Source: Eledone cirrhosa
Taxonomy: Eukaryota
DNA length: 64,000 bases
NCBI GenBank assembly: GCA_964016885.1
Contig: OZ024741.1
Span: forward strand, 359,228,001 to 359,292,000
Reading direction: 5' to 3'
This document shows positions 1,753-51,488 of this stretch, piece after piece. Every line of letters starts with the position of its first letter. Positions within the stretch are counted from its first letter, which is position 1. The translations under genes were made by a program, and so were the position numbers. A model generated the notes under the pieces. That model was not told the origin of the DNA, did not search any database, and worked only from the letters and a program-made list of their open reading frames with translations.

Positions 1753-1787
1753 CCTCCGAAGAAGAGCTATTATCTCGAAAATTAAGG
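1753..1787 (+). ncRNA. Degenerate minimal hammerhead ribozyme motif (U4C core change)
   Basis: CCT-CCGAAGA-A-GAG(ctattat)CTC-GAAA-AT-TA-AGG; palindromic AATT helix III, 3-bp helix I. Confidence 0.45.
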
Positions 1788-1940
1788 ACATTTAAATAAA
1801 TATAAGGTAAAAGACGAATTGTCAACAATATCTTTTGCATTTGCATTCTTTATTCTATGTCCATACCTGCATTGTTTTGGCTTTATTATACATATACAAA
1901 CATATATATATATATATATATATACATATATATATACACA

Positions 1941-2291
1941 TGGAGGCACATGGCTTAGTGGTTAGAGCATTGGCTTTGCAATCGAAAGATTGTGAGTTCA
2001 ATTCTCAGACCGGTTGATGTGTTGTTTCCTTGAGCAAGACACTTTATTTCACATTGCTCCAGTTTACTCAGCTGTAGAAATGAGATGATAGGGACTGGGG
2101 TCCCTATCATTCCACTGCAAAGTGGTCGTGGAGGTGCCACGGCAAAAAAGCACCCAGCACTCACTGTAAATGAGGTTGGTGTTAGGAAGGGCATCCAGCT
2201 GTAGAAATCAAGCCAGAATCAGTTCCCGTCCCACCCTTGCAAGCAGGGAAAAACGGATGTAAAATGAAATGATGACGATGATGATGATGAT
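1941..2291 (+). mobile_element. tRNA-derived SINE with RTE-type 3' tail and (GAT)n end
   Basis: A-box-like tggcttagtgg and B-box-like gagttcaattc; tail matches the RTE 3' end; near-identical inverted copy at 61480-61823. Confidence 0.85.
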
Positions 2292-4387
2292 ATACATATA
2301 TATACATATGTATACATATATATATATATATATATATGTATACATATGTATACATAGGTATCTGTATATATATACACACATATATATATATACACATACA
2401 TACATATATATATATATAAATATATATATGTATATATACACACACATATATATATATATACACACACACATATATATATATATATATATATATATATATA
2501 TATATATATACACACACACATATATATGCCGTCGGAGTCATACTTTTTCCTATATATAAATACATATATATGTGTGTGTGTGATTGTATGCACACACACA
2601 CCTACATATATATACATCATCATCCTTGCCATTTAACATCTATTTTTTCCAACTTGCTTGGATTAGACAAGTTGTCTCATTATGAGGCCAGACAGGTCAG
2701 GTGATCATGTCTTGCTTATACAAACCATTTTTGGCTTGGGTGCCTTCTTAACACCAACTGCATTATAGCCAGCACTCCCATCTCACAAGGTGGCCAGGTG
2801 ATTTTTATTGTGGCACTATTACAACCACCTTACAGAGTGGATTATGTGCTTTTTGTTGTGTTCCCAGTATGACCACTATACAGGATGGGCTGTGTGCTTT
2901 TTGTTGTGGCACCAACATGACCACATTATAGAGTAGACTGGGTGAGTTTTTGTTGTATCACCAGCATGCCCACCTTGCAAGGTAAACTGGGGGCTTTTTC
3001 TTATGGCAACAGTGCTCCATACATAAACACTCAAAAAGAATCATCTGATTTCAAAAATCTATATTTTTTAAACAAATGGCCATATAATCATGTGGTAACT
3101 TATACAATACATATCTGAATATAAAGTTATATATTTTTTTATAACTTTTATAAATTTTTATAAAGTTATTTACAATTTTTACATGCCTTTTAGTCTGCTT
3201 CATGATGATGATTCTTTTTGATCCACCCTGTATGTATATATATATATATGTAGCAATTGAAAAAACAGAGTTAAAGACTTGCGTTAATCCTCTGTAATTT
3301 TATGAGCTCAAATTACCTGGCTCTCAATAATACAGTATATAGAGAAGAAAACACAAAAAGGGGTTATTTTTTCATTTACAAAGAGTATAGAACCACTATA
3401 GTGAAATATATAAGGTCTACGAAAAGTGGAGAAAGTACATAATAATTAAGAGGTAAAATTAAAATGTAAAACACCCACCTTTATAACTATACACACCTGG
3501 ACATTCCCAAAGAAGAGAATGTTTCGTTAAAGTGCTGGTAACATACCTTGTCAGGACTTATCAACAGGTGTAAAGAAGGTATAGCCAACACGTCTAAGGA
3601 TATTTCAGACAACTGAATAAAGCATGTGTTGATAGAACGAAAACATGTGTACCAGACAGTATATAGTGGCATGAATGGATCAAGAAGCCACTAGAAATGG
3701 CAGCCTATAACCATTCAATTTAAAAAGCTCAACTAACGAAGAATTTATATATATATATATCATCATTCTTTTATGCCTGCTTTCCATGCTGACATGATGG
3801 ACATATCATGAAGATCTTAGTCAATTCTTATTCAGAGTTACCGCTCCCCAAGATGGGTTCAAGGACCAAGTTTCACTCATACATTCTATTTTTGGCACCC
3901 TTCCTAACACCATCCACTTTACAGCGTGTACTGACTGTAATTTATTATGGCAACAGCACTACCACTTTATTGAGTGTACTGGGAGCTTTTTTCATGGATC
4001 CAGCACTACCACCTTACAGGGTGGACTGGATGCTTTTTGTCTTGGCAATACAATTGCAGTCCTTTGTCATCTCCTTGATGAGGCCCAGCATCCTGGGATC
4101 AGTCACCACCACTTCGTCCCATGTTTTACTGAGTCCTCCTCTTCAACAAGTTCTATCCACTTAGAGTGCCTTGGACTTATTTATATAGTTGTCATCCTCC
4201 ATACACACCCCATGTCCAAACTGTCAAGTGTTTGTAGTTAAGTTTAATTTACACATATTCGGTGAAATCTATAGGTTTATTTTGAACTACACTATAGCAT
4301 AAAAAACAAAGTCCTCTTATATATATCAGATAGGGTGTGGTAAAAAACCAAGTAGAGTACTCGATACTTGAGGTAGTAGAGTGGGTA

Positions 4388-4496
4388 ATATGAAAAGATT
4401 CAAGACCCCGACAGCTGAGCTCCAGCCATTTCGACAACTGATCTAGCTGTTGACATGGTCGGAGCTCAGCCGTCGGGGTCCTGAATCTTTTCATAT
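4388..4496. repeat. 109-bp imperfect hairpin (52-bp arms)
   Basis: atatgaaaagattcaagaccccgacagctgagctcc...ggagctcagccgtcggggtcctgaatcttttcatat. Confidence 0.9.
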
Positions 4497-5289
4497 ATAT
4501 ATATATATATATATATATGCACACACACACACACTGTATCAGTACATAGGTATTTAGCACCTTAGGCTTGCCTTACAATGTAAACCCCAATCTCCCAAAT
4601 AAAATAATTTCAACTTATATTTTAGCAAGGAGACAAACCTAGTTTTTTACACTTGCTCTGAGCACACAATAAAAAATTACAAAGCCTGCATTTTCTACTA
4701 CACAGTCCATACTCACTTACACCAACTCATGTGACAGGTCATAATACGATATGAACCCCTCCACCATTTTGGATATTTATTGATTGCAGGAAATTATTAT
4801 ATTAATTAAATATATAATATATTTAATTAAATGATACAGATTTGTGGCTGCTCAGTGAGCCTTAATGGTATTGTCAAGCCAATATACACACATATGTATG
4901 TATTGTCCCATAACTCCTCATAAAGTCGTAGGGGCACCGAATTGACATACAGAATTTCTTGGGCATTTTAAGCCTGGCGGAGCCCACCCCTCTCCAGGCC
5001 TGAGTACAGCAGATTTCTTCCAGAGAAAGGTAGAAAGTGAGAGAGAGGAAATGAGAAAGAGATTTAGAGGAAAAATTGACCCCAGTACTAGACCGGTACT
5101 TTTTTTATCGACTGCGAAAGGATAAAAGGCAAAGTTGACCTTGGCGTGATTTAAACTCAGAGAGCTGGAACGAATACCATAAACTATTCTATCCAAAGTT
5201 CTAACAACTCTGCCAATTTGCTGCCTATACACACATATGAACATGAATATATATTAGTTCTTTTCTATCAAGTTAAAGTAAGAGTAATC

Positions 5290-49305: not shown

Positions 49306-49447
49306 GATCTATATTTGATCAAGAAGTTTGTTTTGGTGAACTTGGATGCTTTTCAAACGAAGGGGAGTTTGTTTCCATTGAACGCCCAATAAACCTTTTA
49401 CCCAACAAACCAGCTGAAATTGGGACAAAGTTTTACCTCTATACAAG
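49306..49447 (+). CDS. Pancreatic lipase-related gene, exon 2
   Basis: AG..GT; EVCFGELGCFSNEGEFVSIERPINLLPNKPAEIGTKFYLYT, the classic pancreatic lipase N-terminus; not in the ORF track. Confidence 0.93.
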
Positions 49448-50049
49448 GTTAGCATTTTTTTTTTTTTATAATAATTCTACTTCACAAGTTTATATGTATC
49501 AAACAGATTAATTAATACTGTGTTTTGGCTTGCCTCAAACGCCAACATTCTTTGTTGTAGTACGTAATTGAGGGAGTGTACTTGTTTTTTCCTTTCTGAT
49601 TCATTTATGTTTTGTAAACAATGGGAGTTAGAGTTGTCGTTTTACATCTGTTCTGTTATGCTTGCATGGGTTAGATGAAGCCCAAAGCTTATCCTGGTTT
49701 CTTGGGCATTAAGTGACTGAGATTACAAGGCTTCCTTCTCGTTGGGGTACCTGTCTGTCACAGTACTAAACCTCAGCTGTCACTGGTACTAATTTTCAGC
49801 TGAATAAACTAGAGCAATGTGAAACGAAGTGTCTTGTTCAAGGACACAACGCATTAACCAGTCTTGGAAGGAACCAAACCCATGACCGTATTGTCATGAG
49901 CCAAACTCCCTAACCACTAGTCCAATTTAAAACAGCTTGGTTTTTCTTAGCAGAAATTTGAAAATGCCAAGAGACTATTTCTCAATGAAATTCATATTTT
50001 GGTGTATTTCTATAACTTTCTTAGATTATATTTATGTACTTAGCTGTGC

Positions 50050-50840
50050 GAGGTGTATGAAAGGGAGTGAGGAGAAGTAGTGCATACTAGAGACCACTAG
50101 ATGCTTGCTTCATCTCTTGTACATAGGAAGATGGGCCTTCTGCAGTACTGCATAACACCAGAGATCCTGTGTCGTCACCTTTGAGAAATGTAATCGTGTG
50201 GTCAGCTTTTATCACCTCATCCCAAGCTTTCCAAGGTCTTCCTTTTCTATAGCTTCCAAGGTCTTCCTTTCTATAGCTTCCATCAACCTTGAGAGCCCAG
50301 CACGTTTTTATACTGCTGTCATCCTTCATGTACATCACATGTCCATACCCTTGCAATCTTCTCTCCTGCACACTGCATCTAATCCCTGTTATGTCCAATT
50401 TCTCTCTCAGTTTATTTACACTTTGCTATTCATGTATATTACTATTACACATCCATCAGAGAATGCAAGCTTCATTTCTTTCCAATCTACATAGGTCCTA
50501 TGCACACAGTGCCTAAGTCTCACTACCATGCAGCTTAGCTGTTTGTATACATGCATCATACAATCTGCCTTACATTTTGTTGCTAGAAAAACCTTTTGTT
50601 GCTAGCAGTATTAGTTCCCTGAACTTTCTCCATCCTGTTCTCAATCTGGCTGCTGAACATCCACCTGCACTGCTAATTTGGTCACCCCAGAATTTAGTAG
50701 AGCATGTTTTCTGTGATCACTTGCTGCTCACTGTTCCTGTGCATTGACCACATGCAAAACCTACATTATTAGCTTAGCCAGCCTGAGGTCCCACTATATC
50801 TCTTGTACCCATAGTTTGCATTTGTGTCAGAGGATGGAAT
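50050..50840 (-). mobile_element. Decayed RTE fragment in lipase intron 2 (another at ~54090-54560)
   Basis: GIRCSVQERRL..GHV, GRPWKAW. Confidence 0.8.
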
Positions 50841-51072
50841 ATATATTTAAATACAAGTACCAAGAAATCCTAGTTGAAGAAAACTACAACAGAGGAAGAC
50901 CTGAACAGAGGTGGTGAGAGCTGATCTCAAATTACTGAAGCTCACAAAGGAGATGACAAAGGAACATGATGAGCGGAGAGATGCTGTATTGAAAAAGACC
51001 CATCCAACCTATGTAAGCATGGAACAGTGGACATAAAATGATGATGATGATGATATATATATATATCTATTG

Positions 51073-51488
51073 TATTTCTTTAGAAATACGAAATTCCAAT
51101 ACATATCTGTATACAGTTATGCATGAAGCTACATCCTAATTCTATTCCATTATAAGTGGAGCCAACTTATACAGCTTCATATGCAAATAAGATTAATCAC
51201 CTCATTTACACAGGCGAGAAAACGATATATTCTCAACTGTTTTCAAGTCCAGCAGTTGCAAGAGTGGGAAGGATCATTCTGATGAGAACCAGTTAAGTTC
51301 GAAATGCATCGACAATTGTCCCCTTTGCTTCTGCTGGACACCACCAGAGGGCGATAGCCCCGGTGTTTTGCATAGCTACGGCTTTCTAATTGTTTACCTA
51401 TAAACATATCATATTCCTTTAGAAATACAAAATTACAATACATATATGTATACAGCTATGCATGAAGCTAAATCCTAATTCTATTTCA
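51073..51488 (+). mobile_element. 339-bp hammerhead monomer with 77-bp terminal direct repeat (retrozyme/pLTR-like)
   Basis: 51073-51149 is a near-identical direct repeat of 51412-51488; hammerhead core inside. Confidence 0.7.
51272..51317 (+). ncRNA. Type-I hammerhead ribozyme, intact core, eroded helix I
   Basis: gatcatt-CTGATGA-GAAC(cagttaa)GTTC-GAAA-TGCA-TC-gacaatt. Confidence 0.7.

Follow-up and report, generated by a model that had tools for sequence, protein, structure and literature searches.

Introduction

The elements considered here lie closest to two described classes: the minimal hammerhead ribozymes (min-HHRs) in the pseudo-long terminal repeats (pLTRs) of metazoan endonuclease-bearing (EN+) Penelope-like elements (PLEs), and the hammerhead ribozymes (HHRs) of metazoan non-LTR retrozymes. 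Here, we analyze a 64,000-nt stretch of Eledone cirrhosa DNA (the window; contig OZ024741.1, positions 359,228,001 to 359,292,000) against its assembly (GCA_964016885.1; 2,996 Mb, ~3.0 Gb). It is very probable that HHRs end at least five coding PLE families and sit in three families lacking an open reading frame (ORF), and that all of these are spread by PLE reverse transcriptase (RT) and endonuclease at (TA)n.

Published systems are compared through those parts of the cited papers drawn on here. The min-HHRs of PLE pLTRs (PMC4209133) share with those of the window: the type I fold; a short palindromic helix III; a G10.1-C11.1 pair; an additional nucleotide after position 9 and before 10.1; a U3-A8 variant; and many families per genome, mostly as solo truncated copies, with opposite-strand pairs 100-700 bp apart. 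They differ in that helix III here is often 4-8 nt, and that account contains no cephalopod. Published PLE HHRs cleave poorly or need PLE protein (PMC4209133, PMC11167929), and in one system the HHR is protein-assisted and dispensable for insertion in vitro (PMC11167929). Canonical EN+ PLEs encode an RT followed by a C-terminal GIY-YIG domain, with a CX2-5CxxC linker in the Neptune/Nematis type (PMC8557442). Their insertions have a one-ended tail, an inverted copy and a (TA)n bias (PMC8557442). Two internal RT start sites bound the tail, which is described as exclusive to PLEs (PMC11167929).

Non-LTR retrozymes (PMC7229834; 10.64898/2026.07.22.740005) consist of tandem units that lack an ORF, carry a single type-I HHR and have a GC content below 45%, and they coexist with PLEs. 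Mobilization by PLEs and a PLE origin have already been proposed for them (10.64898/2026.07.22.740005); their mobilizer and the role of the PLE hammerhead are stated open questions (PMC7229834, PMC7761336, 10.64898/2026.07.22.740005). As both hammerhead classes and their proposed link are published, the elements described here are no new kind of system. A repeat analysis of Octopus vulgaris reports 31 recently active PLE families, and the parts of it drawn on here mention neither ribozyme nor hammerhead (PMC13282606). A literature search found no report of a cephalopod or octopus hammerhead, within a scope that did not take in most subscription papers or the PMC7229834 supplement, a possible source of species listings.

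Hammerhead motifs in the window

The initial annotation had placed type-I cores at eight sites in the window and likened them to those of PLE pLTRs and retrozymes. Both statements hold. All eight sites fit the type-I fold, two of them with a deviant core, and the positions first noted are motif edges within ~55 nt of those used here, which are C3 positions (position 3 for 45380) given with predicted H17 cleavage sites. The loopless palindromic helix III that had been ascribed to nearly all sites is found in six of the seven families then listed, the exception being 13813/14344, where helix III is AGGACU (2 bp, GA loop).

A strict descriptor (canonical CUGANGA + GAAA + UH core; helix I and helix II each of at least 3 bp) has four matches in the window (13813, 14344, 31650 and 47146), whereas 60 local dinucleotide shuffles averaged 0.03 and never exceeded 1. 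Loosened settings, each giving at most 0.1 in shuffles, add 1756, 32450, 45380, 51279 and 32907; the last, on the minus strand, is a ninth site. The core is canonical at 13813, 14344, 31650, 32450, 47146 and 51279, deviates at 1756 (U4C) and 32907 (G8A), and is a U3-A8 covariant at 45380, where helix I is 2 bp. At site 32450, the basal position of helix II is a U.U (10.1-11.1), and site 51279 has a helix I that is damaged in the window copy and 7 bp long in its family.

Other CUGANGA...GAAA matches, at 25220, 37425, 30686, 63081 and 18222, failed the helix tests. An Rfam scan of the window gave no hammerhead among the 150 of 225 matches listed, and a scan of seven loci gave none at gathering level; these scans returned only microsatellite-driven miRNA matches under the gathering score.

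The nine sites belong to eight families, numbered by position:

1650..1908, plus strand: PLE family 1, 3' end (1746-1908) with a min-HHR; assigned from homologous loci with ORFs and Pfam
13550..14548, no single strand: PLE family 2, two 5'-truncated 3' ends in inverted orientation; HHR in both arms
31518..31905, minus strand: PLE family 3, 5'-truncated 3' end with a min-HHR; assigned from RT/GIY-YIG remnants in other loci
32270..32774, minus strand: family 4, retrozyme-type, about one unit with HHR; assigned from copy counts, monomers and ends
32773..33769, minus strand: PLE family 5, GIY-YIG remnant and degenerate HHR; assigned from PLE protein matches
45191..46035, minus strand: PLE family 6, 3' untranslated region/pLTR with U3-A8 covariant HHR; assigned from an ORF in locus L181
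47040..47165, minus strand: family 7, short and ORF-less, between (TA)n runs; assigned from exact 30-mer counts
51060..51488, plus strand: family 8, ~1.27 units of a 339-nt repeat; assigned from HHR, tandem and end counts

Genome-wide density

The window was also claimed to hold part of a very dense, multi-family population, and this is borne out across the genome. Sixty evenly placed 10-kb stretches (600 kb) contain 38 descriptor matches, in 22 of the stretches, as compared to 0-2 in each of ten shuffles. The sampled density of 4.05 per 64 kb is close to that of the window under the same rule (4.0), indicating that the window is average for the genome and not special. Extrapolation gives ~185,000 motifs (110,000-280,000; bootstrap over stretches), or ~1 per 16 kb, a figure in which two doubtful matches in simple tandem repeat (L311) are still counted. 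Published counts are 2,000-9,000 min-HHRs per genome (PMC4209133), more than 6,000 in coral, ~5,000 in mussel and 120,000 in axolotl (PMC7229834), although these use other descriptors and the comparison is not strict.

Could the motifs be chance matches in AT-rich, microsatellite-rich DNA? The two matches in tandem repeat and a rate of ~1 per 600 kb in shuffles point that way, as do the 19,448 matches that the pattern CTGANGANGN{7,30}CGAAA still yields when reversed. In its forward form, however, this pattern has 83,295 matches, and the 38 sampled matches far exceed the 0-2 of the shuffles. Family patterns are more decisive: exact 33-mers of family 2 occur 3,470 times, the family 4 core 24,911 times (~25,000 dispersed copies), the family 4 stretch past the cleavage site 26,047 times and exact 30-mers of family 7 617 times, with 0 for every control. 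These counts refute chance, which retains practically no probability.

Families resembling family 7 make up about one third of the matches in the random sample. Outside the window lie at least ten more HHR families, among them one whose helix II is 11 bp long, a large set of relatives of family 7 and, at L303, a further U3-A8 family near a PLE ORF.

Coding PLE families

Families 1, 2, 3, 5 and 6 are truncated 3' ends of protein-coding EN+ PLEs. In their longer copies, the HHR has an RT followed by a C-terminal GIY-YIG domain upstream of it, on its own strand. As a group, they show a pLTR or partial tandem, 5' truncation, an inverted copy and a one-ended tail, the tail pairing being counted in families 1, 2 and 6. 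Together with AT-rich targets, these partial tandems, inverted 5'-truncated copies and tails resemble those described for PLEs in general (PMC8557442) and for Anolis Poseidon (PMC11167929), a likeness drawn from domains and anatomy. RVT_1 and GIY-YIG both exceed the Pfam cut-off in family 1 only; RVT_1 is below cut-off in families 2 and 6 and absent in family 3. Where full Pfam support is lacking, the RT and GIY-YIG motifs come from translations and tblastn. The four PLE proteins compared are 22-30% identical in pairs, making the coding families distinct lineages.

The elements had initially been described as small and non-coding. This stands for the families at 32450, 47146 and 51279 and falls for those at 1756, 13813/14344, 31650 and 45380 (plus 32907), which are coding PLE 3' ends. 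The population had also been proposed to escape ORF-based annotation entirely; for these coding families, RT/GIY-YIG ORFs are found by homology search.

In family 1, the HHR (C3 1756, H17 1784) has U4C, an extra nucleotide 9.1 and helix III AAUU. The window copy lies in (TA)n, with an inverted tailed 3' end (~1650-1733) ahead of the 3' end. An ORF with RT and GIY-YIG lies directly upstream in 6 of 20 loci (L194, L195, L198, L202, L203 and L205). U4C is present in 14 of 22 motifs and the canonical U in 7 of 22, in a sample biased by the query.

The family 2 HHRs (C3 13813, minus, and 14344, plus) occupy the two arms of a perfect 381-nt inverted repeat, in which the left arm has the tail and the right arm is short; the final 43 codons of the endonuclease remain at 14003-14131(+). 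In longer copies (L071-L078), an ORF that ends ~200 nt before the HHR encodes RT, a C-x4-C-x2-C linker and GIY-YIG, and partial tandems of ~4.1 kb (4,083 bp) occur. This linker, shared with family 6, is as in PLEs with a CX2-5CxxC linker (PMC8557442). In L071 and L075-L077, microsatellite-like repeats make up a long, Asn/Thr-rich insertion in the N-terminal part of the family 2 ORF.

Family 3 (C3 31650, H17 31623) has an extra nucleotide 9.1 and helix III ACGU, with GUC in the window copy and GUU in most copies. Its 3' end is fixed at 31518, and its 5' ends vary. Frameshifted remnants of RT, CxxCxxC and GIY-YIG are contiguous with the HHR in L027 and are common to L012 and L008. Family 5 (C3 32907) has helix III AUAU and keeps G8A in most copies. 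Its window copy contains a GIY-YIG remnant (33032-33507) and an inverted 3' end (33566-33769). PLE protein matches occur in 20 of 20 loci, and the copies are 79-90% identical, marking an older family. In family 6 (position 3 at 45380, H17 45343, helix III ACCGGU), copies are 98-99% identical, the U3-A8 pair is kept in 38 of 38 motif matches, and L181 encodes a 1138-amino-acid ORF with RT, CxxxxCxxC and GIY-YIG.

Fragments of a further divergent PLE-like RT and GIY-YIG type occur at L078:6970-8001(+) and L152:1987-2358(+). Unrelated HHR families are nested in L057, L071, L194, L198 and L207 through insertion into one another's (TA)n flanks.

ORF-less families

Only families 4 (32450), 7 (47146) and 8 (51279) are without a linked ORF in the loci examined. 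The family 4 HHR (C3 32450, H17 32420) has a 6-bp helix I and helix III ACUAGU, and in its window copy the short 3' end lies in (TA)n at ~32270, with an inverted tailed copy extending to ~32774. The family has the anatomy of a non-LTR retrozyme: ORF-less head-to-tail units, one type-I HHR each and low GC. Monomers (n=27) are 420-516 nt long with 33-39% GC, exceeding the 170-400 nt first reported and falling within the 51-972 of a later preprint (10.64898/2026.07.22.740005). The basal U.U of helix II recurs in axolotl HHR_Amex2. Unlike published retrozymes, family 4 carries a microsatellite in its unit and is described here from genomic DNA. The first 100 listed places fall into 59 clusters, of which 21 hold more than one copy. 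No RNA was listed as containing family 4, a result without bearing on its expression, and contigs of three runs contain the element.

Covariation may be reflected in one helix I pair of family 4, which is in a pairing form in 137 of 143 copies (U.G 57, G.U 39, A-U 38, C-G 3), although few subfamily events lie behind these variants and the copies were chosen by core pattern. Helices I and II form when one monomer is folded as a circle, a fold made without a shuffle control.

The family 7 HHR (C3 47146, H17 47097) has a long helix II and helix III AUAUAUAU. A PLE match occurs in 1 of 30 loci, set apart from the element; these 30 loci contain no tandem HHR units, and inverted pairs are present. 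The family 8 HHR (C3 51279, H17 51310) is of canonical type, with a 4-bp helix II and helix III AUGCAU. Many copies have a 339-nt terminal redundancy, and two tandem pairs occur among 39 distinct copies. Helix variation among copies is mostly one-sided decay.

Insertion signature and mobilization

Across the element families, 3' ends are fixed, 5' ends vary and the flanks are (TA)n, and every family has two alternative 3' ends adjoining (TA)n. Within the 300-nt stretch beside the sampled HHRs, (TA)5 occurs downstream in 32 of 38 and upstream in 18 of 38, as compared to 20% of random windows. In family 4, 75 of 82 ends abut TA. Opposite-strand neighbors among the first 100 listed places are divergent rather than convergent (11 to 0 in family 4; 18 to 1 in family 2). 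The divergent pairs of family 4 (58 loci) combine one tailed and one short arm in 24 of 24 cases where half would be expected (p 5e-8), although a few of these may be separate insertions. Tail pairing was counted in three of the coding families, with the same combination in family 2 (13/13), family 1 (7/7) and family 6 (4/5). It also holds in the ORF-less families 7 (11/11) and 8 (6/6). Tails reach ~60-95 nt in some families, as compared to 30-40 bp in described PLEs.

The presence of this PLE signature on ORF-less families suggests that PLE enzymes likely mobilize families 4, 7 and 8. If published PLE biochemistry applies, the reaction would involve: nicking of AT-rich DNA or (TA)n by the GIY-YIG domain; priming by RT at two internal RNA sites 50-200 nt downstream of the hammerhead (~270 for the family 4 tail); and early arrest of most cDNAs, which would leave mainly HHR-bearing stubs. 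The hammerhead may be over-represented simply through its position close to where copying starts, as most cDNAs stop early. In coding families, cleavage is probably either weak or not required for insertion. The ORF-less families could be pLTR-only derivatives, that is, non-LTR retrozymes, using PLE enzymes in trans.

One other source of mobility would be a LINE or other non-PLE enzyme, or RNA-RNA replication with occasional insertion. Long and short interspersed elements (LINEs and SINEs) are abundant in the window, and PMC7229834 leaves LINEs open as mobilizers. However, the two fixed internal 3' ends, the inverted tail/short pairs and the (TA)n flanks match those of coding PLEs in the same genome, and the downstream flanks examined contain no poly(A) end. 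Mobilization of the ORF-less families by non-PLE means is highly improbable on these data.

Alternatively, all families may be ends or gutted by-products of coding PLEs, with tandems that grew later by slippage or unequal crossover and ribozymes carried as passengers. Consistent with this proposal, five of the eight families are coding PLE ends, families 7 and 8 are rarely tandem, and the preprint 10.64898/2026.07.22.740005 offers local amplification as one route and observed that, of 9 dimers tested, only 1 cleaved. Family 4 fits it poorly: the tail end joins straight to the unit start in most copies; PLE protein matches occur in only 3 of 42 loci, apart from the unit; multi-unit arms flank an inversion (L171); the ~25,000 copies are dispersed; and the helix I pair may covary. 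An origin of all families as by-products is unlikely, although it retains appreciable weight.

Family 4 arrays

Six family 4 arrays, including both arms of L171 and L172, are near-homogeneous (at most 2 differences per 171 nt). In L171, the arms flanking the inversion contain 2+7 units with at most 2 differences. The five units of L173 (G000:C1:19314200-19317800) form a perfect ABAB pattern, in which alternate units have 0 differences and neighbors 14. Arrays in L179, L364, L366, L368 and L369 are heterogeneous. Only 9 of 59 units have their nearest unit strictly within their own locus, and rolling-circle copying is thus not separated from a master multimer. Overall, the arrays fit circular or multimeric templates with template switching; a master multimer or later DNA expansion is also compatible.

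The ribozyme of family 4 likely cuts multimeric transcripts to unit length, which dimer pairing through the palindromic helix III may aid, and the units may circularize. Tentatively, family 4 could be a 25,000-copy retrozyme whose self-cleaved circular RNA is copied by PLE enzymes in rolling-circle fashion from two internal starts, a possibility that falls short of even likelihood. Such copying would leave in the genome the inverted tail/short ends of PLEs, near-identical arms across an inversion and, from a dimeric circle, the ABAB array of L173.

Several observations weigh against mobilization by PLE enzymes and a role for the ribozyme. A PLE ORF is detectable within 1.6 kb upstream for only 6 of 38 randomly sampled HHRs, so that most HHRs are not assignable to a PLE. 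Among 47 PLE-bearing loci, which are a small part of the PLE diversity of the genome, none has a PLE that shares sequence with families 4, 7 or 8 and could be their parent. Local minimum free energy folds yield the hammerhead helices at just two of seven window sites, and families with U4C (family 1) or G8A (family 5) cores have spread nonetheless. Nor do the 5' ends of family 4 accumulate at the cleavage site: 88 of 92 copies extend through the HHR, and not one of the remaining four begins exactly there; this sample is biased, as most loci were picked for carrying an HHR.

Other elements in the window

The setting of the motifs is rich in (TA)n and SINE-like repeats. Two Ty3/gypsy-type LTR retrotransposons, 22603-28352(-) and 34306-40048(+), are 98.9% identical, inverted and ~6 kb apart. 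Both have RT, RNase H and integrase by Pfam and LTRs of ~404 bp that are 98-99% alike, and their frame breaks differ. A LINE at 40301-43376(-) has an endonuclease, an RT and a C-terminal PHD-finger match, and a 74% related fragment lies at 18711-19010. SINE-like copies at 1930-2253(+) and 61511-61834(-) are 95% identical, and their head weakly resembles a tRNA (Rfam tRNA E 0.11-0.16, sub-gathering). Further SINE-like and 48-49-nt tandem families are present, and 5273-5737 is an ACC/ACT-rich trinucleotide stretch with strong GC skew.

Implications

What these data add to the published proposals is the scale of the motifs and the occurrence of the PLE signature in an ORF-less family of high copy number. 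The case for PLE mobilization is made here from insertion signatures, whereas that of 10.64898/2026.07.22.740005 is made from co-occurrence and pLTR homology in vertebrates; in the parts of that preprint drawn on here, the word 'tail' is absent and no mollusc appears. Family 4 is ORF-less and young, has 25,000 copies and carries the signature of two PLE start sites, and near-intact PLE ORFs are present in the same genome. This makes trans-mobilization testable in the published in vitro system. The natural core variants found in successful families (U3-A8, U4C, G8A and U.U at 10.1-11.1) offer a panel for whether cleavage matters. If the rolling-circle reading of family 4 is true, the ~185,000 motifs would be the largest number among the published hammerhead counts compared.

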